A stretch of 58,887 nt of DNA, the filler included, from Jimgerdemannia flammicorona (Eukaryota): assembly GCA_003990765.1 (NCBI GenBank). It is 3 parts of 3 records of this genome, joined end to end, with 100 filler letters (N's around TTAATTAATTAA, not from the genome) between each part and the next. Parts side by side here need not be neighbours in the genome. Positions count along the whole stretch, not along the records: positions 1 to 19,564 come from RBNJ01001909.1; 2 more parts are not named here. One strand, given 5' to 3'. Positions 1 through 48,536 of this stretch are shown piece after piece. The notes beneath the pieces are model-generated. The model was not told the origin of the DNA. It was given only the letters and a program-made list of their open reading frames with translations, and did no database searches. The position numbers were made by a program, and so were the translations under genes. Each line of letters starts with the position of its first letter. Position 1 is the stretch's first letter.

Positions 1-441
1 CCCCTTTTCTGTGAAAGACCACTTTGTCGAACACTATCCCCACCCTCCTACTACTCTGCTCACAGATCTTTATCACCAAACTGTAATGTCTACCCCCCTG
101 AGGACCCCAACCCACCCACCATCTGGTCATCAGATCCCCCACCAATTCCTCCCACCTTAACACCTTCTCACGCAGCCCCAACTGCTGCCCCTCCTCAAAT
201 ACAAAAAGCCAATATCCCACCAGTTCCATCCATACTGCTAACACCCATCCTATAGTGAGCCAACTATCCCCCACCCCACCCACAAGCTGAGACCTTAAGT
301 CCTCTCATCGATCCCCCTCCCCCACTAGCCGATGCCCTATACCCAGTCTATCCCCTATTTCAGCCCAAAATTCCCCCAAGATCTCACACTCCCCCAGCCA
401 ATGTTCTGGCATCTGTACATGACCCCCAGCTTACCCAACAA
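1..441 (-). mobile_element. Fragment of L1/Tx1-like LINE (family A), ORF2 C-terminal region, inserted in the 5' LTR of gypsy element 1
   Basis: Colinear similarity to 32370-32800 and 44890-45300 (e.g. aaagaccactttgtc...ggaccccaacc...gccaatgttctggcatctgtacat). LTR1 sequence starts abruptly at 442. Confidence 0.8.
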
Positions 442-1154
442 TGGTGATATCATCAAGGACTACCCAGATAGTACCTAAACTCATAAATAGCATAGCAGTC
501 ATAGTATAGTTAGATTAGTCTTATATGACATGACTGTGAACTGACTCAGTAATCAGACGATCTCTTGATATATCAGATCATACTTATACTACGTGACTGT
601 ATTCTAACTCAGCAAAGCACTTAGTACTATATCCATATTCAGCATAGTCCAGATAGCCCCTCACTAGTATAAATACCCCCTCCCCCAGACCTCAGAATCT
701 CAGACTCGAACACACAAGAATATTCCTGAATACTTCCTCACAATATCCCTTCACACAACTACTCCTAGTATAGCAATATTATGAATAGCAAATAAACCTA
801 TTCCATAACCCACAAACCACTCTTAAGTAAATCTACTCCCTGTTAGGTCCCACTCCTAACCCCATCATGAAATTTCCTAATTGGGTATTATCTGCAGCGA
901 TACACCAATTCAACTAAGCTGGTCTTAGTTTCTTGAACTTCCTGAAATACAGAAAATCCTGAACATCCAGAACTAGTCCGAAAAAGGACTTTGGTTGAGA
1001 CGTTAACCCGATCTTGAAATCAATAAGCATAGAGGATGTACTCCATATGAAATTGATCTTGACCAGAAGAAAACAGTCTTCCAGAATATCCAGAACTTCC
1101 GGAAAACCCTTCCAGAACTATGTAATGGTTACCCTAAAAAGCAACCTTCTTACA
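442..1154 (+). repeat. 5' LTR of element 1, distal part only (LTR1 family)
   Basis: Matches 8718-9198 plus 10403-10626. Ends ...CTTACA. Contains TATAAATA (668-675) and AATAAA (791-796). Confidence 0.93.
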
Positions 1155-1157
1155 ACT

Positions 1158-1168
1158 TGGTAGCAGCG
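1158..1168 (+). promoter_or_regulatory. Primer binding site, probably initiator tRNA-Met
   Basis: TGGTAGCAGCG 3 nt after the LTR end. It is complementary to a tRNA 3' end CGCUGCUACCA, which implies the A1:U72 pair typical of eukaryotic tRNAi-Met. Confidence 0.7.
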
Positions 1169-2115
1169 GTTTACAATCCAATTCCACTTCAAGACACTTC
1201 CTCACCCGCTACAAACCCTTCTGAGAATTCCTACAAGTTGGTATAAAGCCCAACCTCTGAACTAGAATTTATCCTGAACCATCTGACAATCTGGAGAGAA
1301 TTGAATCTGACATACAAGGACAATTTGACCTCCACACCTGCAACAAGTAGGATAAACTTCATTCAAAGAAAGAAGTACTCCAGTTAAACCAGCAAATAGA
1401 TGAAACCCTATTCACCAAACTCCTTACACTACACCCAGCAAGTCAAGACAAAGAAGGTCTTATTGAAGTCTTCTTTATTCTTCTCAACAAGAGTTTTGTC
1501 AGCTCTACAAATCTGAGTGATCTAGGACAACCAGCAGCAGTCTTTCTAGCCTTAGTTTCTCACGAAGCCCAAGCCTCTGTAGCCAAGTGGCTCAACTCTA
1601 CCGACTTTCACCATACCAGGACCAAGACCACGTTATACTACTGATTCCAGAACAGCAAGACCTGCCATATTCTTAAAGAAGAAGCAAGAGAAACTCTTCA
1701 TCAACTACCTGACCCCAAACCTGAAGCAGGCCCTGCTACAGCCCTACCTGAATCTGAAACCAATACTGAACCTGAACTTGACTTTGAATTAAGTCCATCT
1801 GAAATCAGATATACAACTGATTCTGTCTACTTTGATGCCAAGCAAACTCAATTACATGGGGACCAAACTGAAGAAGAGGAGGAGTATCTCAGTGAATTTG
1901 ATTTCAGATATACCACCAAAGGAGAAGTACCTCCATCAGGACAGAATACACCTACACAGTAATAAACAGTTATCTATCAAGCCCTCACCCCAGACCCACA
2001 ACTACTACTCCAGCAACTTATACAGACCCAAAGAACCCCATCACACTCTGCACCAATACCTCAAGTAGTACTAGTAACACCACTACCAGCAGTCCAACTG
2101 CCTCCAGTAAACAAC

Positions 2116-5100
2116 ATGGTGAACCAACAGATTCTAAACCTCACAGCCCAGGTAGCCATAATGGTAGCAACCATTACTGCCTTAGCTGAACAGACCCGAC
2201 CTACCAAAAATCTGAGTCTACCTACCTTCAATGGTACTGCACAAGAAGTTCAAAGCTTCATTAGTGTAGTTGACACCAACTTCGAAGCCAATCAATGGAC
2301 TAATGAGCGAGTTGCTGACTGTGTTCTGACAAACAATCAAGACCACACTCTGGAACAACTCTTTGTCACCACTACAGCCTATGTCCGCCAAGTTGTTACA
2401 TTCTTCCAAGGACCTGCCAAAGAATGGTGGCAAACCCTTCCTGAAAAACCCCTCACATGGAATACCCGACCTGCAGTAGTTGCTCAGAATACAGCAAACA
2501 ATACCCCAGGATATGGAGCCCATCCTATAGCCCCTGGACTCAAACAACTCATGATTGCTCAATACTGCAGCAAAACCATGATCACCAAATCTTGAGTAAA
2601 ACTCCGCAACCTCAAATTTGATATATATGGCAAAGAAGAATTCGAAACCTTCTGTACAAAACTCGAGTCACTCCTGAATACTGTTGGCCTAGGATACATT
2701 GCCAATGATGAAGCACAAAATGGTATAAGAGCAGACCACTTATTCGATGCCCTGCCTGAATGGCTTACTAGAAAAATCTGAGAATAAGGCCACCCAGTTG
2801 GTTGCGACCACCAACAGTGGTGCCTGGCAAGAATCAAGACTATGGTCAAGCAAATCCTAACAGCTGGACCAATTCTGCCCCGAAGACAATTCAACAACAA
2901 GGAAAAGACTTGGACCAAGAAAGAAGAACTCAAGCATGAAGCATCCTGAGCTCTCTCTACATCCACCTCTTGGACACCCAGAAATCATAAACCTACCCAG
3001 TCAGGTACCTTCAAGAAACTTACTGAAGGCAAAAGGAATAAACTTCGAAGAAGTGGAGCATGCTTCTATTGCCGAAAGACAGAATACATGGCCAGTGCCT
3101 GCCCTAACCTAAAACCCTGAACAGCAACAAGAGCAACTATTACCACTCTGCACCACCTCAACAACCTGACCACCAGAATACTAGACTTTATCAATTTAAG
3201 ACAAACTGCTAAGGCCCCAACCAAAGGAAGTTAAAAAGCAGCTGAATATGATCTGTATGCAGCCAAAGAGGCTACAGTCTCCAACTGAGAAGTCAAACAA
3301 GTCTATACAGGAATCAGTATCCAAATCCCTGAAGGACATGTTGGAAGAATATGCTGTCGAAGCAGCCTAGCTTTGAAAGGACCCTCAGTAGAAGGAGGAG
3401 TCATTAATGAGGATTATACAGATGAAATTATTATCCTCATCTGAAACCACAGTTGGATACTCTTCAAAATCCCTATTGGTTTCTGCATTGCTCAGATCCT
3501 ATTCAAAAATGTCAAGTCAACCCTGACAGTCAAGGAAGTCCCCGAACTACTGCCCACCATCCGAGGATCCAAAGGATTTGGCTCATCAAACAAGGCCCCA
3601 GCCCAACCTACCATGAGCAAAGAAGAACAATTCTACAAGAAAATCAAAGATGGATATGTACCAGATGGCTGATGTCCCCATGGCATTGGAATGTACTCTT
3701 CCCAAATGATTGATGATTACTTCTTTTGTGTCAATGAACTAGCTCAAAGAAGAACCAATAGAAGGAAAGCTCCTATAACTGAAATCACCACCATTGGATC
3801 AGACAAACTGCTCACACTTAAGGCTTTTGTCAACCGAGCATCTGTCAAGATTATGATAGACAGTGGTGCCTCAGACAACTTTATCAATGAAGAGACAGCC
3901 AACAGACTCAAGGTCTTTATCTCTCCAGTACAGCAAACTCAAGCAGTTGCTACAGCTGATGGAACCTCACATGTTATTAGCAAAGAAGTCTGCAATCTAC
4001 CCCTCTGAATTAGCGACTACCGAGTACATGTTACCCTTCAAATTGTACCACTTCCTGACAATGAAATCATCCTTGGGACTCCATGGTTAAAACAAGAGAA
4101 CCTCATGATTGATTGGGTAAACCATTCTCTGACCATCAAGAAAGGATGCCACAACTTCAGACTGCAAGGCGAAAAGGACCCACTTAATTCTGGTGACCCT
4201 GGACTAAAGATCACCCACATCAACAAGCTACAACTCAAGAAATTGGCCAAGAAATGCCCTCTCTTCACTATCTCCATCCACCCATCCAAAGGAGAACCCA
4301 AGAACTCTGAAGAAGATTTCTCCAAAGTTGACAGCCATGTCAGACCACTACTCTAGAAATTTCGAGACATATTTCCAAAAAAACTCCCAAAAGGCCTACC
4401 TCCTAAATGAGCAGTAGACCATGCAATCAAGACTATTCCAGATGCCAAACCAACCTTCAAGTCAATCTACCACATGTCTTCAAGAGAAATCGATGCACTC
4501 AAGAAAGAAATTGACAAACTCCTAGAACAAGGATTCATTAGACCCAGTGTATCACTCTATGGTATACCAGTCCTCTTCGTTGTCAAGAAAGGAGGAGATC
4601 TGCGAATGTGCATTGACCACCATGATCTCAATGAACAGACCATCAAGAACTGTTGCCCACTACCAAGGATCAATGAAATATTCAATAGACTTACCAACCC
4701 ACAATTCATAAGCTCTTTTGACCTGCAAAATAGTTACTGGAAAATTGCCATGAAAGAAGAAGACATCTACAAGACAGCTTTCTGAACTCGCTATGGACAC
4801 TTTGAGTTTCTGGTTATACCCTTTGGCTTAACTAATGCTCTAGCAACCTTCCAAACTCTGATGAATATCATTCTGCATCCATACCTAGACAAATTCATTG
4901 TTGTCTACATTGATGACATCCTAGTCTTCAGCAAAACTCTGGAGGAACATCTTGAACACCTTGAACTAGTACTACTGAAACTCCAAGAAAACCGACTCTT
5001 TGCAAAACTCAGCAAGTGCAAATTTCTCCTGAAAGAAATTCAATTTCTTGGACACATTATCACTCCAAATGGAATAAAAGTGGACTCCAGCAAAATCTCT

Positions 5101-7248
5101 GCAATCAAGGATTGGCCCAGACCCAAGAAGCTGAAAGACCTCCAGTTATTCCTGGGATTAGCAAACTATTACAGGTGATTTGTTGCCAACTTTGCTAAAA
5201 TTGCTACCACCCTCACTCAAATGACCAAGTATAGTAAGAAACAAGAACAACCCTGGACCATAAAATAAGAGAAAGACTTCAACAATCTTGTAACTTGGGG
5301 ACCTGAGCAAGATACCACCTTTCAAGTACTAAAGGATGCCCTGATAATAACTCCAGTACTTCAAGCAGCAAACCCTGCACTGTCATATGAAGTTACCACT
5401 GATGTCTCTGACCTAGCCCTTGGAGCAGTACTCATGCAAGAAGGACACCCTGTGGCCTATCACTCTCACAAGTTCAATGATGCTGAAATCAACTATACAA
5501 CTCACAAGAAGGAAATGCTAGCCATTGTAGACACTCTGATCAAGTGGCAACCCTATCTAGAAGGAGCACACTTTACCATATTAACTGACCACAAATCATT
5601 AGTCAATATCAAGACACAGGCTACCCTTTCTCAGAAGCAAGCCAGATAGATGAAAATCCTCACCAACTTTGATTACGAAATCCAGTACCACCCTGGCAAG
5701 GAAAATATTGTTGCCGATGCAATCTCCAGACCACCAATTGAAGAGGTTATCTAAACTCTGACCTTGGTTACCAACACTATCATGGAACAAATCATTGCAG
5801 CATGTATTGATGATAAAGAAACTCAAGTACTCTGAGAAATCCTGAACAGTGATGATACTGACAAGCATACCCAGTACAATCAATACCAACTGAAGGACAA
5901 TGCTATCTACTACAAAGACAGACTGTATGTCCCAAACAACCAAGACCTCTGAAGGACTATCCTATTTGAATGTCATGATACCCCTACAGCTGGACATTTA
6001 GGATTTGATAAATGTTACGAAATTATCTCCTGAAACTTCTATTGGCCCCGCATGGCAGATCAGCTCAAAATCTACATCACTTTCTATGATGCCTGCCAAT
6101 GAAACAAGTCCTCAATACTAGCAAAACCTGGCTTACTTCACCCTATCTCAGTACCATCTGCTAATTGGGAACAAATCTCTATGGACTTCATTGTACAACT
6201 ACCCTGAACCAAGAACAGGAAAGATGCAATTGTTGTCTTTATAGACTATCTTAGCAAACAAGCCCACTTCATGCCTACCACCACTACTGCAACAGCACCA
6301 GACATAGCCACACTCTTGTTTGATAACATCTTCCACTATCATGGTCTTCTCAAGATCATTGTTAGTGACCAAGACCCGAAATTCACCAGCCATTTTTGGA
6401 AAGTCCTCCATGCATACCTTGGAACAAAACTTGCACTATCCACAACCTTTCACCCAGAAACTGATAGCCAAACTGAAAGAATGAACTGAACTCTGGAACA
6501 AATGCTAAGGAACTATGTTTTCTACAGACAAGATAACTGGTATGAACACCTCACCACAGTTGAGTTTGCCTATAATAATAGCAAGCAAGCCTCTCTTGGA
6601 ATGAGCCCATTCTTCACCAACATTGGACAAAACCCAAACACCCCTTTGACATTTATCTGAACAACTGAAGAACCCTCTACAGTTGAAGCTGTTGAAGAAT
6701 TCTTACTTTGAATGTGCAACCTAAGCCAGATTACCATTGAAAATTTATCATAAGCTCAAGAACAACAGTCACAGTATGTTAACCAACACTGCCAAGAAGA
6801 AACCTTTGATATTGGAGAAGAAGTTCTACTAGACATCAGAGGATACTGAGTTGACAACCTCAAGCACAGACTATCTACAAAGCTGAACAGCAAGTTCATT
6901 AGACCATTTGAAGTCATTGTACAAGTCTCTCCAACCTCCTACAAATTGGTGCTACCAGATACTATTAAGATTCACCCAGTCTTTAATGTTCAATACCTCA
7001 AGCAATACAATGAGAATGATGATGAGCTATTTCCAAACCGGACTACCAAACCACCTGCACCTATCATTATTAATGACCAAGAAGAGTATGAAGTTGAACA
7101 AATCCTCAACAAATGTGGCAACAAGAGCCACCCTGAGTACCTTATCAAATAGAAAGGTTACCCAATCCACAATGCAACCTGGGAACTCAAGATCAATCTC
7201 CAGAATGCTACTGACCTAGTTCAGAAATATGATTCCTTGAACAACTAG
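2116..7248 (+). pseudogene. gag-dUTPase-pol polyprotein of element 1, single frame, multiple nonsense codons
   Basis: ORF pieces at 2116, 3691, 4105, 4474, 4861, 5434, 6271 and 6946 all lie in one frame. Motifs: CFYCRKTEYMASAC (3061), IDSGASDNF, YIDD, TDVSDLALGAVL, ISMDF, HPETDSQTERMN, chromodomain EYEVEQIL...YLIK*KGY...ATWE. Confidence 0.93.
3190..3591 (+). other. dUTPase domain of element 1 (between Gag zinc knuckle and protease)
   Basis: Frame-1 translation AAEYDLYAA...TGISIQIPEGHVGRICCRSSLA...GGVINEDYTDEI...IAQ...RGSKGFGSS shows the five trimeric dUTPase motifs in mutated form. Confidence 0.9.
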
Positions 7249-7364
7249 AATCAAATACTCTGCATCTATCTATATATACTATATATTATCTTCCTGAACA
7301 GTCAAGCCTATTCTCTCATTACCACTGAACAAATTAGAAGGCCCCGATGAGGATGTCGAAAGCT

Positions 7365-7377
7365 AAGAAGGAGAGAG
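7365..7377 (+). promoter_or_regulatory. Polypurine tract of element 1
   Basis: AAGAAGGAGAGAG immediately before the TGTAAG LTR start at 7379. Confidence 0.85.
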
Positions 7378-7666
7378 TTGTAAGTGCACAACCTCCAAGC
7401 CACCGAAATTACATGTCACCCTCTGAACAAGCCATTGAAATCACACACAACCTCTGAACAAATCTGGAAATCACCTGCTTGATCACAAAGCTGAGTCAAA
7501 CTGAAGTCACAGCACACAAAGCTGAGTCAATATGAAGTCACAGAATATAAGATTTATACAAACGGAATCTTACCAATCAGGATCGAATGTATATATACCG
7601 AGCACCAAAATACGTCGAACCAGAAAACCAAAACAAACAACAACCACAACTTCCAAACATACAAAC

Positions 7667-8755
7667 ATGACCACTGAGATCTATATCCATATCCATGCTG
7701 ACATTTGGAATATCATTGTCAATGAAGCCACACCCCCTCTGCCCCTCATGAATATCCATAGCCTAGCACCCCTCTACTTCGTAGAAGCCCGATGGAATGC
7801 TCTGAACATACTTAGTGAGGCCCACTGAATTGGACAAATCTCAAGCTACTACCAGATCGGCCACCTCCTGGAAGACATGGTTGAACACCACCACAATATA
7901 GACATTACCCAGATGTCTCAACACCAGAAGCTCATTGCCCACAAACATTGAGAACTCTTCTACGAGTACAGTACCATTATTCCCCACCTCCAAGTTACTA
8001 CCAGTGAAATGATTACTACTCTGTCCTATGGCCAAATTGATGACATGATATAAGAACTCAACCACAAGTACCTTGAGTACGTCAAAACCACAGACAGAAC
8101 CTTCCCACACCCCAATGATCATATCCTACAAATGCTCCAAGTTGGATATGCCATAAAGGACATCTATGATATAATCCACTTCGATGAAGATGAAGCAGAA
8201 GACAATGATCCCTCTGATGCCGACATGACCTCTAGCCAAGGATCTCTGCCAACCCTGATCACTCTGCCAATCTTGCCGATGAACTTACAACAGTTTATAA
8301 CTATATACAAGACTTATTGGGACAATGACCACTGGCATGAATACCAACCCACATTCACTCCCAATTACTTCAACTATAATGAAGAGACTGGAGAATACAA
8401 CCTGTACCTCCAGACAACCTTCGAGATTGAACCAACCACTCCACCACCTGAGCATGAACCATAGCCACCAGCTTACTACAATTCCGCAACTCATAGTACT
8501 GTAACCTATAGAAGGTATACAGATAGCAAATCTGATGAAAGTGAAGACGATGCACCCCTCTTTCACCCACCAATACCTTATCCAGCATATGAGATAGATG
8601 ATGCCATCTTGTGGGACAGAGATGAAGTTTCAATATATTATTACCTCAGCAAACAAGGAGAAGTAATCTGCGAACCACTTTTCCTAGACAACTACTTCAT
8701 CAGAGATGATGCAATTGATGGTGATGTCATCGAGAACTACCCAGATAGTGCCTAA
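7667..8755 (+). pseudogene. Orphan ~362-codon ORF inside the LTR1 U3 region (a few transition-type stops)
   Basis: ATG 7667 to TAA 8755 in one frame, joining track ORFs 7532 and 8132 (MTTEIY...EARWNALNIL...YWDNDHWHEYQP...VICEPLFLDNYFIRDDAIDGDVIENYPDSA). Present in all three full LTR1 copies. Confidence 0.7.
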
Positions 8756-9198
8756 ACCCATAAATAGCATAGCAGTCATAGTATAGTTAGATTAGCCTTA
8801 TACAACATGATTGTGAACTAACTCAGCAATCAGATGATCTCTTGACCATACTTGTACTATGTGACTGCATTCTGACTCAGCAAAGCACTTAGTGCTATAT
8901 CCATATTCAGCATAGTCCAGATAGCCTCTCACTAGTATAAATACCCCCTCTCCCAGACCTCAGAATCTCAGACTCGAATACATAAGAACATTCCTGAATA
9001 CTTCCTCACAATATCCCTTCACACAACTACTCCTAGTATAGCAATATCATGAATAGCAAATAAACCTATTCTATAACCCACAAACTACTCTTAAGTAAAT
9101 CTACTCTCTGTTAGGTCCCACTCCTAACCCTATCACGAAATTTCCTAATTGGGTATTGTCTGCAGTGATACACCAATTCAATTAAGCTGGTCTTAGTT

Positions 9199-10390
9199 CA
9201 GCTCCTTTCTCTGCTACCTTACCGGTCACAAGATTTGGTGGGTGACCTTCCAAGTCTCCTTTCCCCTATTATTACACCCTTTACCTCGAGTTGGTTTGCT
9301 GTACCTATAGGGGCATGGTGGGAGGAGGGCAATGGTGATGAGTTGCCCCTTTATCAGTATCAGATCAGTGTTTCCTCCACTTTTTCGTGGATTCTGATGC
9401 CTTCGGCTGCATCTGGGGTGTACCTGTTTTGGTGCGGCACCTTCATCCTTTTGCTATCACCAACAAGGTGTTGTCTCGGTGTGTCTCAGACTATGTAGAG
9501 AGTCAGCCGACCTTGGGCATCAAGTGCTCAGTATAGGTTACCTGCAGGTCTTCGGTGCCTGTGGTGGGGCCCTCTGGCTTTGGCAAGCTTCCCGGCGAGC
9601 ATGGTTCTGGCATAGGTGACTGCTTTTTGGGTGTTGTCGGAATGGGAGGGGAGATGGCCATCACAGATAGGAGGAAGGGCAATTATGGTGAACCAGTAGA
9701 GTGTCAGGCTAGGGGCAGTTATTGGGGCTGGGGTAGGTGCTGCTTCGGTGGGGCCTTTTGATTGGTGCGGCGTGGTTAGGTGGTAGGTGTCACTATCGGC
9801 TTCTTTTGGCAGTCAGCAGAGTTGGGCCCCAGTCATCAGGAGGGGTCAGGAGACTTGAGGCTACCCATTTCAGACATCTTGGCTGCACTCAACTGGAACT
9901 GGGAGCTGACAGGGCAACGTGATTGAGGCCTACAGGCTTGAGTAGTGGGGTATTGGGAGTTTCCTCCTGCCTCACGTATAAGTCCTTTACTCACCTCGAC
10001 TAGGAGAACCAGGCCCTACCCACCATGTTGTGCTTTGATGAGGGTTTTTTCTTTGTCTGTCATTCTCTTTGGAGTGGCAGGGGCTATTCTATTTAGCTTG
10101 GGCATGGCTTTGTACATACATTGGGTTCTCAGGCATGCACTTTCGGTCATTGGTATATGGTTGGGTTTCCCCTGGCAGTAGGGAGAGCATGGTGTGCAGA
10201 ATGAGGTGTGGGCCTATTGGCCCTACTATGTCTGGCATGGTCGAGCTGCTGGACAATAGCTAGCCTAGGTTAATGGGGTGGCAGTACTTGGTGGGTGGTG
10301 GGGGAGGGTTTTGGCCTATATAGTCTAGGTTCCCTTCCAATAAAATTCTGTGGGACATGAGTCCATTAAAAAAAAAAAAAAAAAAAAAAA
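9199..10390 (+). mobile_element. Poly(A)-tailed retroposon, family B (probably 5'-truncated)
   Basis: AATAAA then poly(A). 12-bp TSD CTGGTCTTAGTT at 9187-9198 and 10391-10402. Homologous to 12897-14032 and 24158-24610. Confidence 0.88.
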
Positions 10391-10679
10391 CTGGTCTTAG
10401 TTTCTTGAACTTTCTGAAATATAGAAAATCCTGAACATCCAGAACTAGTCCGAAAAAGGACTTTGGTTGAGACGTCAACCTGATCTTGAAATCAATAAGT
10501 GTAGAGGACATACTCTATATGAAATTGATCTTGACCAGAAGAAAATGGTCTTTCAGAATATCTAGAACTTCTAGAAAGCCCTTCCAGAACTACATAATAG
10601 TTACCCTAAAAAGCAATCTTCTTACAGAGGGGCTATCTGGATTATGCTGAATATGGATATAGTACTTAGTATCCTGCTG

Positions 10680-12738
10680 TGTAAGCACACAACCTCCAAG
10701 CCTCCAAAATCACACATCACCCTCTGAACAAGCCACTAAAATCACAAGCAACCTCCAAACAAATCTGAAAATCATCTGCATGATCACAAAGCTGAGTCAA
10801 ACTGAAGTCACAGTACACAAAGCTAAGTCAATACAAAGTTACAGAACACAAGATTCACACAAACAGAATCTTACCAATCAGGACCAAATGCATATATATC
10901 AAGCACTGAGATGCATCAAAATAGAAAATCAAAACAAACAACAACTATAACTTCTGAACATATACAAATATGACCACCGAGATCTATAACCACATCTGTA
11001 CTGACATTTGGAATACCATTATCAACTGAGCCATACTCCCTCTACCCCTCATGAATATCCATAGTATGGCACTCCTCTACTTCGTGGAAGCCCGATGGAA
11101 TGCCCTGAATATGCTTAATGAGGTCTACCAAATCAGACAAATCTCAAGCTACTATCAGATCAGCCACCTCCTAGAAGACATAATCAAACACTACCATGAT
11201 ATGGACATTACCCAGATGTCTCAACACCAGAAGCTCATCACCTATAAATATCAAGAACTCTTCTATGAGTATAGCACTATTATTCCTCACCTCCAAGTTA
11301 CTACCAGTGAAATGGTTACTACTCTGTCCTATGGCCAAATCAATGACATGATATAAGAACTCAACTACAAGTATCTCGAGTACATTGAGACTACAGACAG
11401 AACCTTCCCACACCCCAATGACCATATCCTGCAAATGTCTCAAGTTGGATATACCATGAAGAATGTCTACAATATAATCTACTTCAATGAAGATGAAGCA
11501 GAAGACAATGATCCCTCTGATACTGACATAACCTCAAGCCAAGGATCTCTGCCAATCCTGATCACACCACCAACCCTGCCAATAAACTTACAATAGTTTA
11601 TAACCACATATGAGACTTATTGGGACAATGATCACTAGTATGAATACCAACCCATATTTACCTCTGGTTACTTCAACTATAATGAAGAAACTGGAGAACA
11701 CAACCTGTACCTTCAGACAACTCTTAAGATTGAACCAACAATGCTGCCACCCAAGTATAAGTGACATGAACCACAGCTGCCAGTTTACTATAACCCCATG
11801 ACTCATAGTGCTGTAATCTACAGAAGGTATGCAGATAGCAAATCTGATGAAAGTGAAGACAATGCACTACTTCTTTACCCACTAATACCTTATCCAGCAT
11901 ATGAGACAGATGATACTATCCTATGGGATGGTGATGAAGTTTCAATGTATTATTATCTCAGTGAATAAGAAGAAGTAATCTGCGAACCACTCTTCTTAGA
12001 TGACTACTTCATCAGAGATGATGTCATTGATGGTGATATCATTGAAGACTACCCAGATAGCATCTAAATCTATAAATAGCCTAGCAGTCATAGTATAATT
12101 AGATTAGCCTTGTACAACATGACTGTGAACTGACTCAGCAGTCAGACAATCTCTTGATATGTCAGATTACTCCTATATGACTATATTCTGACTCAGCAAG
12201 GTACTAAGTACTACATCCATATCAAGCATAGTCCAGATAGCTCCTTACTAATATAAATACCCCCTCCCCCAGACCTTAGAATCTCAGATCCAGATACCCA
12301 AGAACACTCCTGAATACTTTCCCACAATATCCCTTCACACAACTACTTCTAGTATAGCAATATCATGAATAGCAAATAAATCTATTTAATAACCTACAAA
12401 CTACTCTTAAGCAAATCCACTCTCTATTAGGTCCTACTCCTAACCCTATCACAAAATTTCCTAATTGGGTATTGTCTGCAGTGATATACCAATTCAACTA
12501 AGCTGGTCTTAGTTTCTTAAACTTCCTAAAATATGGAGAATTCTGAACATTCAGAACTAGTCTGAAAAAGAACTTTGGTTGAGATGTTAACCTAAACTTG
12601 AAATCAATAAGCATAGAGGATATACTCCATATGAAATTGATCTTGACCTTAAGAAAATGGTCTTCCAGAATATCCAGAACTTCCAGAAAACCCTTCCAGA
12701 ACTACATAATAGTTACTCTAAAAAGCAACCCTCTTATA
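10680..12738 (+). repeat. Solo LTR1 with 5-bp TSD
   Basis: TGTAAG...CTTATA (mutated CTTACA), flanked by TGCTG at 10675-10679 and 12739-12743. No PBS or PPT adjacent. Confidence 0.9.
10970..12067 (+). pseudogene. Second copy of the LTR1-encoded ORF
   Basis: Same start and stop as the 7667 copy, same frame throughout, net 9 nt longer. Confidence 0.65.
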
Positions 12739-12894
12739 TGCTGAGTTAGAATACAGTCACATAGTATAAGTATGATCTGATATATCAAGGGATTGTCTAA
12801 CTGCTGAGTCAGTTCACAGTTATGTTATATAAGGCTAATCTAACTATACTAATGACTGCTAAGCTATTTATAGATTTAGATGCTATTTGGTTAG

Positions 12895-12896
<2 letters not shown>

Positions 12897-12934
<38 letters not shown>

Positions 12935-12946
12935 TTTTTTTTTTTT

Positions 12947-12985
<39 letters not shown>

Positions 12986-14032
12986 GACTCATATCTTGCA
13001 GATTTTTATTGGAAGAGAACCTAGACTATATAGGCCAAAACTCTCTCCCACTACCCATCAAGCACTGCTCCCTCATTAATCTAGTCTAGCTATTATCTAG
13101 CAGCTCAACCATACCAGATGCAGCAAGACCTATATTGGCCTACACCTCATTCTGTACACTATGCTCTTCCTACTACCAGAGAGAACCCAGTCATATGCCA
13201 ATGACCAAAAGTATATGCCCAAGACCTCAATGTATATATAAGATTATATCTGAATCAAATAGAATAGCCCCTGCCACTCCAAAAAGAATAACAGGCAAAG
13301 AAAAACTCTCATCAAAGTATATTACAGTGGGTAGGGTCTGGTTCTTCCAGTCGAGGTGAGTAAAGAACTTACACATGAGGTAGAAGGAGACCCCCAATAC
13401 CCCACTACTCAAGCCTATAGGCCTTGATCACATTGCTATATCGGCTCTCAGTTCTAGTTGAGTGTAGCCAAGATGTCTGAAATGGGTAGCCTCAGGTCTC
13501 CCAATCTCCCCCAATGACTAGGGCTCAACCTACCAAATTATCAAAAGAAGTTAAAAGTGATACCTACCACCTAACTACTCCACACCAATCAAAAGGCCCC
13601 ACCAAAGCAGTACCTGCCCCAGCCCCAACAACTGCCCCCAGCCTGATACCCTACTGGTTTACTATTATTGCCCTTCCTCTTATCTATAATGGCCATCTCT
13701 CTTTCCATCCCAATACCACTCAAAAAGCAGTCATCTACATCAGAACCATACTTGCTGGGAAGCTTGCCAAAGCCAGAGGGCCCCACCACAGGTACTGAGA
13801 ACCTACAGATAACCTATACTGAGTACTTGATGCCTAAGGTTGGCCAACTCTCTACATAGTCCGAGATACACTAAGACAGTACCTTGTTGGCAATGGTAAA
13901 AGAAAGAAGATACTGCATCAAAATGAATATACTTCAGATATAGCCAAAGATACCAGAAACTATGAAAAAGTAGAGAAGACACTGATCTGATACTGATAAA
14001 GGGGCAACTTATCACTATTACCTTCCCCTCAC
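12897..14032 (-). mobile_element. Family B retroposon, antisense copy
   Basis: Long poly(T) at 12897-12981, then the reverse complement of ~9320-10367. 16-bp TSD TGCTAT(T/C)TGGTTAGTC at 12881-12896 and 14033-14048. Confidence 0.88.
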
Positions 14033-14844
14033 TGCTATCTGGTTAGTCTTTGATGATATCACTATTAATGACATTATCTCTGGCAAAGTTTGAGCAGTTT
14101 TCTGACTTCTGATATTATCAGTTTCAAAGGTATCATCACCTCTGTCTCTTGTAAAATTAAGGCTGTCCTTGGTGGTGGTGATTATATAAGGATAATAGGT
14201 CTTAGTTCTCTTTTTTTTTTGGACTGCTGACATATTTGCAAGGACTGATCATCCTTGTCTAGGACATGAGCTCTCAATGTTATGGCTGAGAGTTCAAATC
14301 TCTTGGAAATAATATTTTCTATAATCTAAGATAATTTCTAATAGTAATATTTATTATATAGGTGGACTTGAGATTAGTTTTAATAATGTCAGCTTTCTTG
14401 AGTTCAGATGAAGCATCTGTCATTCTCTAATAGAGGTGATACAGATAGAGTGAATAGAGTTATTTAAATGTGTTTTACTTCTACTAAGTAATGAGGTCTT
14501 TATATAGTTGTAGTATATCTTAGTCTTAAGTTGATAAGTGTAGTTCATAAACCTTTAGTAGATAAGAGAGGTTCTTTTTATCTTGGTTTGAGTTTGGTAC
14601 TTCAGTTTCCTTTTGTAATAGTATAGTATACCAAAACTAGTAGTAGGGGTATAAGATTAGTCTTATAGTTATAGTACTTTTTCTGATATTTTTGTATCTT
14701 GATAGTAGGTTCTCATACTTGCTGATATATTTTGAGTAATTAGGTGATCTCTTTAGTAACTTGTTTTGTAGTCTCACATGTGGTTTCCAAATTAGTTCTG
14801 AGAATGATATATGATTTTGGTAGCTTGGAGGTTGTATGCTTACA

Positions 14845-15792
14845 GATATTATTATTAATAATATTATCATATTTGGTAGTAGAGAGAGCAAAGAGGTCTG
14901 GGGCTCTCTAATCTATAAGATTCTCTTCTACAAAATAAGGAATAAATGTGAAGTCTTGGAGAGGTCTAACCTAGATGCTGAGGCCTTAGAATACTGAGAT
15001 CAATCCTTGTAGGAATTGATTTGAATTGTCCTAAAGGATGAGATTTCAGAACTTTTCTACTTTATCACTATTGAGGATGATAGTAGACTAAGTTTCTGTG
15101 GCCACTATGGCCTCTAGTGTATTGGTATGGTAAGCTAATAGTTCCTTGAAGTCTGAGATTCTAGTATACTCTAAGTTGGAGATTGACCAAGATATATATC
15201 TGAAGACCTGATAAATCTTTTTGACTATCTTTATTTCATATACATCTATGAGAGTAATATCTTATATTTCTTAGAAACTGACTTGAGGAAATTCCTGATA
15301 GAGGAAGTTTCCTATTTCATATTTCTACTACATCTAGAGATATTTGATAGCAATAGTGATTCTTGTTTCTATTTTATAGTAGTAGAGAATATAATAATAA
15401 AGATTATTAATATTCAGGTTAAGACTAAGAGTTCTTCTTGTATAGATCCTCATAACTCTTCTAATATCTTGGAACATCCTTTTCTGAACTGAGGGGCCTT
15501 GGTGGTTCCTAGATCTTGAGGTTTGGTAAGCAATAGATATTTGTTTGTAGTAAATCTTTTGAACTATTTTTATAAGCCTTATTTAGATTACTACTATTAT
15601 AATTTCTTGATCCTTCTTTTATATTTCTTAAGATATCTGTCTTGTGGTCACAATGACTCATAGTTGGTCATCATTGCTCATCTTGTAGCCTGGGTGAATC
15701 ATGCTGTATGATCTTCTTGTGCTCTGATCTGATGGCTTGTAAGAAAAGGCTGTCTCCTGTGATGATGTCATCATTCTGAGATCACCGTTACA
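14845..15792 (-). repeat. Partial LTR of gypsy family 2 (LTR2), antisense
   Basis: Reverse complement of ~22758-23700. Starts TGTAACGGTGATC at 15792 and is cut at 14845 by the LTR1 variant. Confidence 0.85.
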
Positions 15793-16089
15793 TTATATAA
15801 ATTGGTGGCGCATGTAGGGGGTAACAATATGAAAAGTGTGGTTTGTTCTGGAACGTTCGGAAACGCTGCAACGGTCATTCCGCCTAGTCCCGGGTCAACG
15901 TTTACAATTTCTTGTATTTCTTGTCCATGGGAAAGGTTGGAGATATTGAAGCAGAATCAAAAGAAAAGCTTGTCCATCAAGTCAAGGAACCATACAGAGC
16001 ATAGTAATTATGTAATGGCAAATTCCAATAATGCCTCGTTACTTGAGAGATCTCAACAACGCGACCCCCGAGAACCCGGGAACGCTATC

Positions 16090-19000
16090 TTATGCCGTTC
16101 TAGAACTCGTTTCGGCGAAGCTTTCGAAACCGATTGCCTGCAACATTGCTGCACGATGTTGTAGATTCTTCAGAGATGCCGCCGCCTCTTGCAATAAAGC
16201 GAGCTGATATCCTGTTAGTAATGATTTCATTTTCGAACCACCGTCATCTCTGGAATCAACATTGCGCACTGCCACATTTGCCTCAACACGTTTGCCTTTC
16301 GTCTTTTTTTGTGACTTTCGCTTATTTGACATCTGTGCCGGCTTTACACCGCCTGTGGCGTTAACATCAACTCCAACTCCGTCATACCCGATTATCCCGC
16401 CTGTCAAGCTGGAAAGCGTTTGAAGAATTAAAGTGAATAAGGCATCGGCGGCCTTCTCGGAGCGGACATAAGTAATGCCTCGACAAAGAAGATATATGGC
16501 AATGGTGAGGAAGGTGGGGGAAGAATTTGTTGAAGATGGATCAGAGGCAGACAAGCGTGTAGACCAGGGTGGAAGAGTCTAACATGTCAACAATGTTCCA
16601 CATGAATCAACAATAGTTTTAGATTTATAAAGATCAAAAATACAACGTCAACAGACAGTTCCACGATTTATATGTGTTAAACAAAATCCATACAGACCTT
16701 TAAAGCTTTAGTTATGTTGGAGACGAAATATGCCTCTTCGCCATCGTCAATTTGTGCCTGTGTCTCAGTTGATGCATATTCCAACGAGGATCGAGACGAT
16801 ACAGCCAGGAGGCGCATCGAAAAGGCGATGATGGCCGCTGTGTGCTTCTCTGTAGGATGAATGACCGCATCATGTTATTCACTGTGAAGACAGAATGTCT
16901 TTTGAATTCTAACGTCGCCACCTCCTTTTACATACCATCGAGAGATACTTGACTATCCACGCTTTCTTCACTCTCAGGTCCTTCTGCAACGACTTGGAAA
17001 ACATTGATTTCTCTCAACAAATAATTTGCAGATAGCAAATCCTTCTCAATTAACCATGACACGAGCTTGATTAGTAGGCGTTCGTACTCCTCCCCCACGC
17101 TCGATGACGATGATGGGTGAAGGACGTGGCAAAGAGCGAGTGGAAAGATCGCCTGATTGACTGTTCCTGCGATTGCTTGTGTTGCAGTAACACACTATTT
17201 ATAACGGAGATTGAAGTTTCGCAAGTTAGAATTCATTTGGCGCTTGAAGGCATTAACTACGACGCATAGAACGAAATTCAATGATCTACATAGCTTACCT
17301 CACATAATTTCGTCAACCACTCGTTCGACACACAACATGCTTCGGCAAATGAGATCCATTGGTGCATCGCCCGTGCCACGTCCGTAGTTTTTGCGCTCCA
17401 CCCGTTCCCCGATTCGCTCACAATCGATCCGTTCACGTCGCCGCAAAGCGCCGCGAGCGGCGTTGGGACTAGAACGGCGTCAACAGAGAATTTAAACCGA
17501 AGACCGCTCTCCCGGAAGAGTGATTGAAGGAGGAGTTGGACTGTCCAATCTTTAAAACGCAGGTTAAGGAGGGTGAGGCATGTGGGGACAACGGCAAGAA
17601 CAACGAAGAAACAAGAATTCCAGTCGATGGGATAGTAGATGGAGCAGCCATAGAAAGAATCACGTACCAAGGGTTCTGGATTTCTCGTACAGTTTCCTCG
17701 TCACATCTCTAGCTAACTTCTCCGTTAAGTCTATATTATGGTGCGAAGGAGATAAAGATCAACAAATATACACGAAAATATTTCTTTCAACTGTTTTCCA
17801 ACACTCAAATGAATAATCGTACCAGCATGACTCTTTTGTTCTTCCAGCCTCGTGGCATATCGCTCTGCCTCCTTTATCACCGTTTTCGCTACGAACACCA
17901 CATCCTCCCACTGTCTCATCCCGATTTTCCTGCTTTCTGCTCTCTCCTTCCTTCGATGATCCAGTAGCACCGATAACAAATGCACGAACGACAAAGGACG
18001 ACATCCGTAAAACCACGAATCGCGCGGCATTGGTAATGCTGGTGGTACATGTGTATCGTTCGAAGAAAACGGTGGCGTCGCCCACAGGGCTGTTGAAGTA
18101 GGAAAGATTTGGTGTAGAATGGCTAGCGAGATTTTGAGTGGGAAAAGACTGCAAGGGGGTGTCTGTCCGACAGGGTATTGCAAGACGGGGATGATACATT
18201 GAATGAAGTACTCTCGAATGTCGAGAAGGAGGCAAGGACGCTGACGTGAAAGGTGTACAGCGGTAGTACTGTAGTGGGCCCATTCGCCAACATCCTGGGC
18301 GGACAGGTGGAGCGAAGTGATAGTAACTGAGGATCTCTGAAAAGGACGACAAATACAGGATGTATGAATACAAAGCTCTGACATCATGCACCAAAGCATA
18401 ACGCCCGTAATCAAGTTATACAACTTCAATGTATGATTGACTCACCAACCCCATGCACTCGACCACAAACTCCACAAAGTTGCTCTTTCCGCCAGCCTCC
18501 ATCGCTTTGTCCGTATCTGGTATTTCATGAACACCTCCATTCCGCATCTCTACTAGTATATCACGCAATACCATTACAAGCAAAGCAACGCTATCGCCAG
18601 ACCGCAACCATGCGAGCTTGCCCAGGTGCCGTCGCAAAAGGCTCGCAATCATGAGGCATTGGCCCTTGTTGCGGATAGCTTCGAAACAGAGAGCACGCAG
18701 GACATGGTAAGGAGAGACGAGGGAGAGCTGGAGAAATGGTGACGACACGGAGTACGGTTAAATAATCGGAGAAATGCTCTAATAATAGGAGATCAATCAA
18801 CCATAAAATTAAATCATCCTATGCATCGACAAATACCTCACGCAATTTCTCCACAGCCACTCCCCCATCCTCCCCCATGTCCCCAACAACGTTTTCGCGC
18901 TTTTCATGACTTCGCATGTTCGTCTCGTCCTCTGCATTGGCATAATGCAAAACGTCGTCCGTTGGCACAATTGCTACAAGCTGGTTGCACGACATCATGA

Positions 19001-19511
19001 GTTGGGTGTGAAAATCGGCAGGCCAGAATGTCCAGGAACCAAAAGTAGGTTGGTGAATATCTTGAGTGTGCGAGCTATTGGTGTGATTAAAGTTGGATGG
19101 TCAATAAATAGTTTGCAATCTACTGAAAGTCATACATCGATGCTAGAATTACCGAGAATTATACAGGTAATCGCGAAGCAAAAGTCGATCGTTGGGTGTA
19201 TGGAGCAACGAGAACGTCCTCAGCAAGAGCGAACACAACATCTGCGGTTCAGTGGGCATTTCAATGGCAATAGTCGCGGTGATCAGAAAGCCAAAGACAG
19301 GATCAAAACTGCATTCCACGACCGGCAAAGATGTATGCTCAAGTCGCTACTTTCCACTCACACGTACCTTGATCACACTTGCATCCACGATCTGAGGTGT
19401 TCGATCGCTCAACATTGCCAACCTTCGTATGCTCTCAATAAAATCCTCGACGAGTCCCTCGGAAACGATTAGGGTAGAAAATTGGTCAACGGCGGTAAGG
19501 TCGCTGCGCAT
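16090..19511 (-). CDS. GEMIN4: GEMIN4-like alpha-helical protein (SMN complex component), 5'-incomplete, 10 predicted exons, ~826 aa visible
   Basis: CpG-normal island. Phase-consistent GT-AG model with exons 19511-19368, 19241-19153, 19074-18837, 18727-18446, 18336-17823, 17730-17668, 17549-17299, 17194-16936, 16849-16698 and 16578-16090. Colinear motifs recall human GEMIN4 from memory: FHTQLMMSCNQL~FQEDLNTTFNQL; LLDIREYFIQCIIPVL~LLEPDEVLKEFVLPFL; WFYGCRPLSFVHLLSVLLD~WLQTCSPFPLLFSLCQLLD; LDWTVQLLLQSLF~LDWTVGLRLKSFF; EACCVS~ECCCVS; EYERL..LIEKDLL~EWQRL..LLEKQLL. Confidence 0.72.
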
Positions 19512-19564
19512 TGAGTAGTGGTTTGCGACGACGAGATTACGAATGGAAAAAAAAAAAAAAAAAA

Positions 19565-19663
19565 NNNNNNNNNNNNNNNNNNNNNNNNNNNNNNNNNNNN
19601 NNNNNNNNTTAATTAATTAANNNNNNNNNNNNNNNNNNNNNNNNNNNNNNNNNNNNNNNNNNN
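19565..19663. other. Artificial contig linker / assembly gap
   Basis: N run containing the six-frame stop spacer TTAATTAATTAA. Confidence 0.97.
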
Positions 19664-19775
19664 NGTCATTACATATGAAGAAATAGGGTGGGGGAGGGCC
19701 TAGGGAGATTGGTTATTGGTTAAAGATACTTTAATTATATTATAGTTTGGTATTAAATGGCAAAGTTAAAGTAAC

Positions 19776-26929: not shown

Positions 26930-27390
26930 TCAAAGTTAAGAAATTTCACCCTGAAGCCAAGATCCCAGAATATAAGACTGAAGGAGTCATAGGAATAGAC
27001 CTTGCTAGTATTTAAGATGTTATCCTCAAACCACAGACCACTACTCTACTTGGTACCAAAATTGGAGTCAAGTTGTTAGAAAACTATACTGGAATTACCA
27101 AGACCAGGAGCAGTCTGGCCAAAAGCAAAATCTCAGTTAAAGGAGGGGTAATTGATCCTGATTACACTGGTGAGATCTTCCTCATAGTTAGGAATCACAA
27201 CCCCACCACTCCATTTGAAGTCAAGAAGTATGACAGGATTGACCAGATGCTGATCTATGAAGTCAAGAAGTATGACAGGATTGACCAGATGCTGATCTAT
27301 AAAGTCAAGAAGTCTAAGATCATTGAAGTCATCAAACTTATCAAGATCAAGAGAGAAGAACAAGACTTTGAATCTACTAGAAGAGGAGTC
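26930..27390 (+). other. dUTPase domain of element 2 (between protease and RT)
   Basis: KVKKFHPEAKIPEYKTEGVIGIDLAS...TRSSLAKSKISVKGGVIDPDYTGEI...DRIDQML...REEQDFEST (mutated RGxxGFGST). Confidence 0.88.
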
Positions 27391-30073
27391 TATAATGCCA
27401 TCAAGATTACCAAACTTGAGCACAAGAAAGATAAGGACCAGAATAAGCACACATATACCATTGGAGAAAACATTTCTCTAGATGAACAACTTCTCAAGAT
27501 CCTGCACCAGAATGAAGGAGTACTCACTACAGACTTTAGGGATATCTACAATCAAGAACTCAAGTACTATCATGAAGTTGACAATGGTGATACCAAGCCC
27601 AACTATCAGAAAGCCAGACCTATACAACCTGTCTACAGAGAATGGTTGCAAGCAGAACTCAAGGAAATAGAAGAAGCCAGAATCATCAAGCAAGCTATCA
27701 GTCCCTGGGCTTCACCCATTATCCTCACTCCAAAGAAAGTAAACAAGCCTGGAGAGTTTGCTCCAAGACTCTGTATTGAATACAGGAAGCTCAATGCAAT
27801 TACAAAGAAGGATAGAAATTACAAAGAAGGATAGGCAGCCCTTATCAAATATTCAAGAAATCCTTACCACTCTTGAAAGTGAAGCCAAATACTATACTAT
27901 CTTGGATTTATTCTCAGGCTTCCATCAGATTGGTCTCACTTAAGATACTAGTGAGAAATCAGTCTTCATCATACCTGATGCCACCTATGTCTACCTATGA
28001 ATACCATTTGGAATGTACAATACTCTAGTAAGTTTTCAGTGAATGATGAATAGAGTCTTCAGCAATGAGATTGGAAAATGGTTCTTTGTCTATATTGATG
28101 ATATGATCATCTTCAGCAATACTGTACAGAAATATGTAAACTACATACAGCTAGCTCTCAAGAAGCTAAAGGAGTATGGCCTCTACATTAGACCCAAGAA
28201 GTATAAGTTTGCAGCTTGAGAAATTGCCTACCTAGGATACATTATCAACCAGACCAGAATGCATACAGACTTCATGAAGATTGAGGCTGTTGCAGCCTAT
28301 CCAAGACCCAGGACAACTATAGAAGTCTATGTCTTTCTTGAAGAGGCCTCCTACTATAGAAGATTTATCAAAGGATACTCCAACATTACAGCACCCATCT
28401 ATGAGCTACTGAAGAAGGAGATCAAATTCGAATGGACTAAGAAATGGCAAGAAATCTTCAACAAACTCAAGACTAGATTGACTCAAGCACCTATCCTCAG
28501 AAGACCAGATTGGAACCTAGAGTTTATCCTGCAAACAGATGCAAGTACTATAGGACTTAAGGAGTCTTAGCTCAGAAGAAAGATAGACATGAGTATCTCA
28601 TCTCTTATGCAAGCTGAGGTACCTACAGAGCAGAACAGAACTATGAGTTATATAAGCTTAAATACTTAGCAGTAGTTTGGGCAGTAGACTAGTTCCACTA
28701 CTACCTAGCTGAGAAATACTTCACTATTCAAATAGACTATTCCACTCTTGTCTGGCTATTTCACACTCTGAACCCCAAAGGAATATATGTCAGATAGATC
28801 TACAGGCTGCAAGAGTATGACCACACTATCAAACATTGCTCAAGAAGAACTAATGCCAATGCTGATGCACTCTCAAGGACACCTCAAAACACCCCTATCA
28901 AGACTATTCAATATGAATAAGGAGCTATACTATGGATTAATTAGCTATCTTGGGTAGCAAAAGATGATCAACCACTTCAAACCCTAGACTATCACCATCA
29001 TCAACCAGACTTGGAAACAATTTGAACTAGACAACACTATACTCAGAAAAGGAGAAAAGCTTGTAATATCTAAATACAAGAAGTATCAAGTAATGAAGGA
29101 AGTACATAAACAAGGATATCTAGAAGGAACCAATATATACAATAAGGTAAGAAGAATTATGTGGTGGTCTAAGATAGAAGAAGACCTGTGCCAATTTGCC
29201 AAAGAGTGTGACAAGTATCAAAAACAGAAATAAGATCAGTAAGACCAGATACCCAGATCATCAAAAATTGAGCCTATCTCTTTCCACCACATTGCAATGG
29301 ATATTATTGGACCACTACCAGTAATACTATCAGGAAACCACTATATTATAGTTAGGGTAGACCTCTTTACCAAATAGATAGAAGCAGGAGCATTACAAGA
29401 AGTCAATGTTCTCTCTATAGCTGACTTCCTATACTGAGAAATCATCTGCTGCTACAAGACACCAAAGCAAATTACCACAGACTATGGCACAGAATATGTC
29501 AATAGATTCTATGAGATAATATATCAGAAATACAAGATTTAGCACATCAAGACCACTGCATACCACTCTCAAGGAAATGGACAGACAGAGAGAACCAACA
29601 AGACCCTCAAGAATATCCTGGTGAAGATCTCAGACACATATGAGAATTGGGATAACTACCTCCCAACTGCCCTCTCTATCTTATGAGATATATGGTCACA
29701 GAGTACATACTTTACCCTAAGAGAACTGCTCTTCAGAGAAGAAGATTTCAATAGAACCTTAGCTACAAATCTAGATCTAACATGGAGATAGATTGACTCA
29801 GAAATTTGGAGACTATACTAAATCAGAAAGAAGGCTGAAGATTACATCATCAAGTCACAAGCACTGATAAGAAAGAATATAGAAAAGAATCTCAAAACCC
29901 TAGAACCCATCCAAATCAGAGAAAAGGTCCTACTATATTGATATATAATAGAAGCCTTATGGTTGCGAAAACTGGAGCCCAAATGGAAAGGACTCTTCTA
30001 TATACAAGATATCAAGGGAACTATCTTCTGGCTTAGAAAACTCTCAGAGACCATACTATCTACCACAGTGCAC

Positions 30074-47800: not shown

Positions 47801-48503
47801 ACCCCTGTCCCAAAAGCCCCCAGTGATCTGACCATGGACACTATTCTACCTCCAACGATTTCCAAACATCTAGTCCCCAGCAGCAAGCCATCAAAATCCA
47901 ATCGATCCTAGTCCCCAGACCCCCAGCCCAATGTGTATAAACCCTCCTACTCCCCCAGCACTCCCTTCCAGCATCCAATAGCGCACTCAGCCCCTCGACT
48001 TCCTCCCATGCCACCAACCCTCCACTCCTGCCCTCAGCACCTCGTCCTCCATCTGATCTATCCATCAGTATATCTCTAACCATATTGAAATCTCCCCCTA
48101 GCACATCCACCCCGGCCTCCGCAAGTAACCCACTCTCCTGTAGTCCCTTCACCCAATCGACCCTCTCACCCCGTACCGCAGGGCAGTAGTAAGAACCAAT
48201 CATAACTGGTTCCCAGCCTACCTGAATCCACTCTCCCCAGATCAGTCTCTCCCCTCAGCACTGCACATTCTGTATCTCCCCTCTGCCTCTCTTAACCAAA
48301 ATCCCAACCTTGCCCCTCCAAATCGCTGCACCTCCCCATTCCTTCATCCATTCTAACCTATCAGAGTCATCTTCACACCGGACATCCTGCAAAAGGAAGA
48401 GATCGGCCTCCAATCCCTTCATCCAAGTAAAAATGTTCCTATGTCGAGAAGCGCCCCGTAACCCATTCACGTTCAAAGAGAAAATGTTTGTTGTACTGTT
48501 CAT
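44847..48503 (-). pseudogene. LINE ORF2: APE endonuclease + reverse transcriptase + C-terminal Cys/His region (~1218 codons, about six stops, no frameshift)
   Basis: SLNVNGL, LLQD, GGDFN, RIDWIL, SDH; WRPIMLL, QRGF, LDQEKAYDRV, GVPQGDPLSP, FADD, YLG; CFNC...EHWLGEC. All track ORF pieces share one frame. Confidence 0.93.
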
Positions 48504-48536
48504 ATTGATGATATATGTGATGTCATCAATCTGCCT

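Follow-up and report, generated by a model that had tools for sequence, protein, structure and literature searches.

The question raised by the locus

Does a fungus possess Gemin4, an SMN-complex component that has been placed in animals only? The question is raised by a gene in a stretch of DNA from Jimgerdemannia flammicorona (assembly GCA_003990765.1). The window, as we call the whole stretch that was analysed, comprises 58,887 nucleotides (nt), filler included, from three unrelated contigs joined by N-linkers; positions 1-19564 are contig G000:C1909 (RBNJ01001909.1), and it is the minus strand, where this contig ends, that carries the gene. A first reading made without database searches (the sequence-only reading) had called the gene GEMIN4-like. 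As described below, the gene is real, spliced and expressed, and it is quite probably homologous to GEMIN4. We class it as a GEMIN4-like gene whose orthology is probable but not proven, one profile test (PF24293) having given no match.

Some eukaryotes other than animals have been credited with homologues of Gemin3 and Gemin5, and fungal proteins of this sort may already be labelled in family databases.

In the published account, Gemin3-5 are described as animal additions (collectively PMC10584915, PMC10470402, PMC6385987, PMC11965559, PMC13529492, PMC8287938, PMC6904755, PMC13249430, PMC2736588, PMC8774908, PMC5861365, PMC10608988 and PMC3877121), and the SMN complex of Schizosaccharomyces pombe is without Gemin3-5 (PMC8287938). 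Human GEMIN4, a protein of 1,058 amino acids (aa), is predicted to be all-helical, has no known solved structure and carries mutations in a neurodevelopmental disorder of humans (PMC8774908). Gemin4 binds Gemin3 via its C-terminal half (PMC5861365) and is poorly conserved even among animals (PMC6385987); the same literature calls it modestly conserved, with insect members reached only by iterative search (e.g. PMC6385987). No report of a fungal Gemin4 was found in the accessible text of the literature searched, most subscription journals lying outside it.

A spliced and expressed gene of 16 exons

The part of the gene within the window is a ten-exon model on the minus strand that runs from 19503 to a stop codon at 16090, is phase-consistent with GT-AG introns of 78-126 nt, and encodes 823 aa with no internal stop. 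Transcript evidence comes from three public runs that contain this stretch, namely X1, X2 (from a diverged relative) and X3. Record 3 of X1, a single contig of 3,573 nt, skips nine of the nine introns at exactly the predicted coordinates, and the ten-exon model that the sequence-only reading put forward is thereby borne out. X2 skips seven of the nine exactly; in the other two, the joints are displaced by a few bases and letters stand in between. X3 contributes one splice joint (17194/17299). That nine introns are precisely lost shows X1 and X2 to be derived from complementary DNA; the RNA label of both runs would otherwise be a guess. The synonymous share of the X2 differences, 12 of 34 against 24% expected (in 40 of 78 rows), is too weak for a claim about selection.

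Where is the rest of the gene? In X1 and X2 alike, the transcript departs from the window at the acceptor before 19503 (with a loose end behind 19506), the one that had been proposed, and therefore 19504-19564 is intron. The transcript loose end matches contig G000:C30944 without mismatch, and a genome search with a relative from Endogone, RUS22597.1 (see below), located the N-terminus on G000:C6200. The sequence-only reading had also predicted that the N-terminal part was missing and that further exons would lie on another contig, and these two contigs supply them. All three contigs end in T-runs within introns. The full model has 16 exons and an uninterrupted reading frame of 1,294 aa; 64% of its coding sequence falls inside the window. 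The six upstream exons rest on phase, length and homology, the joint into 19503 being the only one backed by transcripts; together they measure 1,412 nt upstream of 19503 in the model, where the X1 contig has 1,419 nt, an agreement within 7 nt. By the model, intron 3 has an apparent GC donor at G000:C6200:11032 (L016 1682), and the start codon may be either of two ATGs 33 nt apart. About 200 bp upstream of the Gemin4-like gene, and head-to-head with it, starts an Ams1-type alpha-mannosidase gene (L031 on G000:C6200, from 4142 downward, minus strand), which bounds the 5' end of the former.

Two further observations concern the last exon. It encodes, ahead of the last helices, a lysine-rich segment of low conservation (about aa 1201-1250). 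A second X1 contig skips 195 nt inside it, at 16214-16408, with GT..AG ends on the plus strand, possibly marking a spliced antisense transcript that overlaps the 3' end of the gene.

A single relative in Endogone

A search with exon 11 retrieved one protein among 352 candidates, the Endogone hypothetical protein BC937DRAFT_88358 (RUS22597.1, 1,190 aa), at E 6e-39. The two proteins are 50% identical over 1,010 aa, with a further 42% over 168 aa at the N-terminus, and on this sequence agreement RUS22597.1 is clearly to be read as the orthologue of the Gemin4-like gene and is the only full-length relative found. The annotated model of RUS22597.1 lacks the parts that would correspond to about residues 1-100 and 251-340, and at the exon 13/14 joint it is longer by 38 residues; these departures from the 16-exon model are probably annotation errors. 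In the representative search, exon 11 gave four matches, one of them a 68-aa relative (P0001, 70%); the other three were repeat proteins, which we rejected as chance. A metagenome scan with RUS22597.1 gave 174 pattern matches, none of which was confirmed. A 13-row alignment left most of the exons scattered and was set aside.

In the J. flammicorona assembly that was searched (231 Mb in 35,354 contigs), 11 of 11 matches to RUS22597.1 belong to this gene and its three contigs, and the gene is thus single copy with no paralogue. A fungal origin of the contig, which had seemed apparent to the sequence-only reading, is upheld in that the sole full-length relative found is from Endogone, and this one named relative suggests that the host lies near Endogone among the early-diverging fungi.

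Other genes of the SMN complex

If the protein is a Gemin4, does the genome also encode the proteins with which Gemin4 works in animals? A Gemin3/DDX20-type gene is present at 4941-2370 of L005 (G000:C4985, minus strand), the one locus in the genome with the DDX20 motif. Its first exon matches human DDX20 (2oxc) at E 7e-24, with the next family at 1e-10, and DDX20 far outscores Dhh1 and eIF4A. A short Tyr/Trp/Pro-rich tail closes the gene, with a convergent neighbour just downstream. A Gemin5-type gene at about 9257-4440 of L029 (G000:C8139, minus strand) has WD40 repeats followed by TPR_GEMI5 (40.9 bits, cut-off 33) and is cut at the contig end; its best PDB match is Gemin5, at 4.5e-15 vs 1.7e-9. 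SMN, on G000:C4911 (L021, L030), has a Gemin2-binding domain (44.1 bits), a YG-box (27.9 bits) and an acidic N-terminus. The Tudor profile PF06003 misses G000:C4911, and no Tudor domain was seen between the Gemin2-binding and YG-box exons. The matches of PF06003 in the genome are an SPF30-like gene and one weak locus; the Tudor gene at 1079-372 of L019 (G000:C21571, minus strand) reads like what we take to be SPF30/SMNDC1, not SMN. Gemin2 (76.8 bits) and Gemin7 (37.1 bits) are both over the cut-off.

The sequence-only reading had suggested that this lineage keeps an animal-like SMN complex. That is supported by Gemin3, Gemin5, Gemin2, Gemin7 and SMN (five of five genes); Gemin6 and Gemin8 were not found in exon-by-exon searches of the fragmented assembly. 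What is solidly gained, at the level of predicted genes, is Gemin3 and Gemin5 in one fungal genome, together with a Tudor-less SMN.

Is the protein a Gemin4?

Genomic context, size, helical build and a colinear resemblance to the presumed human sequence together make GEMIN4 the probable identity. Like animal GEMIN4 (human; Drosophila Gaulos/CG2941), the protein is large, all-helical, single copy and free of recognised domains, and is encoded in a genome with Gemin3 and Gemin5; unlike human GEMIN4, it is about 235 aa longer and has no PF24293 match. The single-sequence structural model consists of helices only, at a mean predicted local distance difference test (pLDDT) score of 37.6 (43.4 in a second model), which is too poor for fold assignment. 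Three fold searches of these low-confidence models gave generic helical matches only; Foldseek gave no match at E<=0.001, the best VIA Z was 7.5, to generic helical domains, and no Mediator chain stood out. A protein of 1,294 aa that is all-helical in a low-confidence model and has no Pfam family fits the build of GEMIN4 and is not GEMIN4-specific.

The resemblance to human GEMIN4 carries much of our confidence in the identity, as a lead. By eye, the model resembles what we take to be the human sequence in eight colinear blocks, at about 10-65, 85-112, 563-585 and 626-656, and again at about 755-772, 827-846, 911-927 and 961-1050; the comparison is with a presumed human sequence, and is a lead and not a test. 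The first two of these presumed blocks fall in exons 1-2, outside the window, at the expected N-terminal positions. Our presumed human sequence does agree with five residue numbers counted from PMC8774908 (K36, P105, T110, F113 and E114).

Several results weigh against this assignment, and we gather them here. The full-length search with RUS22597.1 found only RUS22597.1 itself among 8,000 candidates scored, by a method that depends on five-residue words in common and is blind to relatives at 20% identity. PF24293 (TPR_Edg1, 397 positions), which is carried by 100% of the chordate GEMI4 cluster of the Atlas, matches neither RUS22597.1, nor its residues 385-776, nor any of the 16 exons taken singly, and finds nothing in the genome at E<=10. 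Gemin6 and Gemin8 gave 0 matches each, in exon-by-exon searches of a fragmented assembly with prokaryotic controls and no positive control, which are no proof of absence. In the Atlas language-model search three Med5 clusters lead (0.90, 0.89 and 0.89, sharing 138-140 of 256 features), followed by Med24 (0.88), Urb2, Med23 and Nckap1, and the chordate GEMI4 cluster comes 28th of the 30 matches. A comparison with a fish-like exon, described below, must be added to these.

The GEMIN4 label given by the sequence-only reading is not established, in that PF24293, the only Gemin4-associated profile available, is without a match, an outcome that the reading had itself named as counting against the label, and the Atlas ranks Med5 above GEMIN4. 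The chordate GEMI4 cluster does appear among the 30 Atlas matches, with a score of 0.87 and 114 of 256 features, and we treat it as a lead only; nothing was returned by the Atlas for exon 11 alone. No Pfam family matched RUS22597.1 at E<=1, and the exons gave only weak chance rows. In a PDB sequence search with RUS22597.1 the best hit, to mS23 at E 0.049, was rejected. Since Gemin4 is so poorly conserved among animals (PMC6385987), the profile misses lower the GEMIN4 reading without overturning it.

Could the protein instead be a diverged Mediator tail subunit of the Med5/Med24 kind, or a paralogue of one? The three best Atlas matches are after all Med5 clusters, with Med24 just behind, and Med5/Med24 are similar in size and helical build. 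Yet true members of an Atlas cluster typically share 170 features, well above the number shared here, and unlike Med5/Med24 the Gemin4-like protein has no match to their Pfam profiles (PF08689, PF11277). Moreover, PF08689 misses RUS22597.1 but matches, over its cut-off, a separate Med5 gene on G000:C14762; the top Atlas rival is therefore weakened, and no Mediator chain is prominent in the fold searches of the low-confidence model. We regard a Mediator subunit as very improbable. The sequence-only reading had allowed for a better match to another helical-repeat family; Med5 does stand higher in the Atlas, though no other family is significant either.

Comparison with a fish-like exon

A metagenome scan with a short motif presumed for animal GEMIN4 yielded one fish-like exon of 218 aa (L023, 1127-474, minus strand, on a 1.9-kb contig). 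Three loci matched; the other two, L024 and L025, have a stop inside the motif and were dropped. Motif scans elsewhere gave one locus in prokaryotes and 0 viral matches. We presume the exon to be GEMIN4, and this provenance counts among the points against the assignment, since no name for it came from Pfam, PDB or cluster look-up; its protein in the collection is an unnamed singleton, a 291-aa call that starts in an intron. PF24293 fails on this exon too, and the profile would therefore cover only part of the protein.

Unlike what might be hoped of an animal GEMIN4, the fungal protein has no significant similarity to this one animal-type exon. Against the fungal proteins BLASTP gave E 2.7, which is not significant; Smith-Waterman alignment gave z of -1.2 to 0.3 in nine of nine settings; a three-sequence hidden Markov model ranked the exon 508, and hhalign gave a probability of 0.6%. 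Whole-query alignment to a two-sequence profile placed the exon best at residue 961, the colinear position, in four of four settings with its first 23 residues included, and 22 to 142 of 200 shuffles scored equally well somewhere. Residues 1-100 of the exon, aligned to the colinear region, had a score reached by 9 and 11 of 1,000 shuffles, in a region picked after by-eye alignment and with the first 23 residues holding the very motif used to fetch the exon; with that part removed, 102 and 93 of 1,000 shuffles reached the score. Residues 101-218 gave no signal in the colinear region. A helix-chain test chose the non-colinear model residues 144-350 for the exon in each of its 12 settings, with z reaching 3.9 at most; thus z near 3 can come from generic helices. 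The comparison spans only a sixth of the protein.

These results bear most directly on the view that the protein is an unrelated, lineage-restricted alpha-solenoid scaffold, whose likeness to GEMIN4 is a generic pattern of amphipathic helices. Nothing in Pfam, in PDB or at the sequence level ties the protein to GEMIN4, and the fish-like exon is at chance without a location prior and scores up to z 3.9 in the wrong place. Against an unrelated scaffold stand a genome in which Gemin3 and Gemin5 are present and PF24293 finds no other Gemin4 candidate, the appearance of GEMI4 among the 30 Atlas matches, and presumed matches that keep their order from end to end, exons found later included (again a lead and not a test). 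An unrelated scaffold is in our judgement unlikely, though it is the strongest competitor of the GEMIN4 reading.

A proposed role in snRNP assembly

What would a fungal Gemin4 do? With moderate confidence, we read the 1,294-aa all-helical scaffold as most probably a diverged fungal counterpart of Gemin4, which by analogy with animals would act in the assembly of small nuclear ribonucleoproteins (snRNPs). Its C-terminal half would bind the non-helicase tail of Gemin3 and the protein would tether Gemin3 to the SMN complex and to Gemin5; the tethering would support the ATP-driven opening of a folded Sm site in precursor small nuclear RNAs, before the Sm ring is loaded. The SMN machine would then be an animal-type Gemin3-4-5 arm on an SMN without a Tudor domain, as in fission yeast. 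According to the paper behind this mechanism, 15 fungi showed no such conserved structure, and caution is therefore needed about the exact substrate.

Like the five-member complex of S. pombe (SMN, Gemin2, 6, 7 and 8), the arrangement proposed here is fungal, with a Tudor-less SMN and with Gemin2 and Gemin7; unlike that complex, it has Gemin3, Gemin5 and a candidate for Gemin4, and neither Gemin6 nor Gemin8 was detected.

Perhaps a true GEMIN4 homologue acts here mainly outside snRNP assembly, in small-RNA silencing by Gemin3, Gemin4 and Argonaute. Animal Gemin3 and Gemin4 are described as forming an SMN-free complex with AGO2 and microRNAs (PMC3877121, PMC10608988), and a genome with neither Gemin6 nor Gemin8 found and with no Tudor match in SMN fits this view. 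Yet the genome has Gemin5, Gemin2 and Gemin7, as well as an SMN in which both conserved ends are kept, and exon-by-exon misses in an assembly of 35,354 contigs do not prove absence. A main role in silencing thus seems distinctly improbable, less so than the Mediator proposal and more so than the unrelated scaffold.

Coordinates and neighbouring features

Table 1. Exons of the Gemin4-like gene and adjoining features, in window positions unless a contig is named
Feature	Position	Strand	Residues (aa)	Evidence and remarks
Exons 1-3	G000:C6200 10370-10574, 10648-10775, 10866-11031	+		N-terminus, end of contig
Exons 4-6	G000:C30944, L001 1289-981, 841-741, 604-102	-		Read from contig matching transcript loose end
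Intron 6, 3' part	19504..19564	-		Broken by assembly at T-run; continues on G000:C30944
Exon 7 of 16, first in window	19368..19503	-	471-516	X1 and X2 show joint 19241/19368 and a loose end past 19506
Exon 8	19153..19241	-	517-545	Model and transcript joints
Exon 9	18837..19074	-	546-625	48% identical to RUS22597.1 (P0006); transcript joints
Exon 10	18446..18727	-	626-719	64% identical to RUS22597.1, among best-conserved stretches; transcript joints
Exon 11, longest	17823..18336	-	720-890	Retrieves RUS22597.1 at E 6e-39; transcript joints
Exon 12	17668..17730	-	891-911	Model and transcript joints
Exon 13	17299..17549	-	912-995	56% identical to RUS22597.1; transcript joints
Exon 14	16936..17194	-	996-1081	Joint 17194/17299 in X1 and X3
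Exon 15	16698..16849	-	1082-1132	Model and transcript joints
Exon 16 and stop	16090..16578	-	1133-1294	Model and transcript joints
Artificial linker between unrelated contigs	19565..19664	.		44 N + 12 bases + 44 N

Elsewhere in the window, a LINE (long interspersed nuclear element)-like element occupies 45192-50657 on the minus strand, its reverse transcriptase spans 46152-47585 (E 7e-32), and part of an endonuclease is found at 47844-48254. A dUTPase fragment at 27016-27831 on the plus strand lies in a repeat-like region and is probably derived from a retroelement.

Implications

The literature cited here places Gemin4 in animals only, and the present candidate comes from a fungus. The Gemin3 and Gemin5 genes of this fungus already strain the account in which Gemin3-5 are animal additions. 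If the gene described here is Gemin4, the arm is complete, and its origin moves back at least to the common ancestor of animals and fungi. We think it likely that early-diverging fungi, or at least the Endogonales, keep a complete Gemin3-Gemin4-Gemin5 arm with a Tudor-less SMN. Gemin4 would then predate the animal-fungal split, and the small machines of yeasts would have arisen by loss and would not represent the ancestral condition. A sequence so distant would flag the few positions that matter in GEMIN4, a protein without a solved structure, and a fungal Gemin3/Gemin4 would offer a simpler partner pair for structural work.

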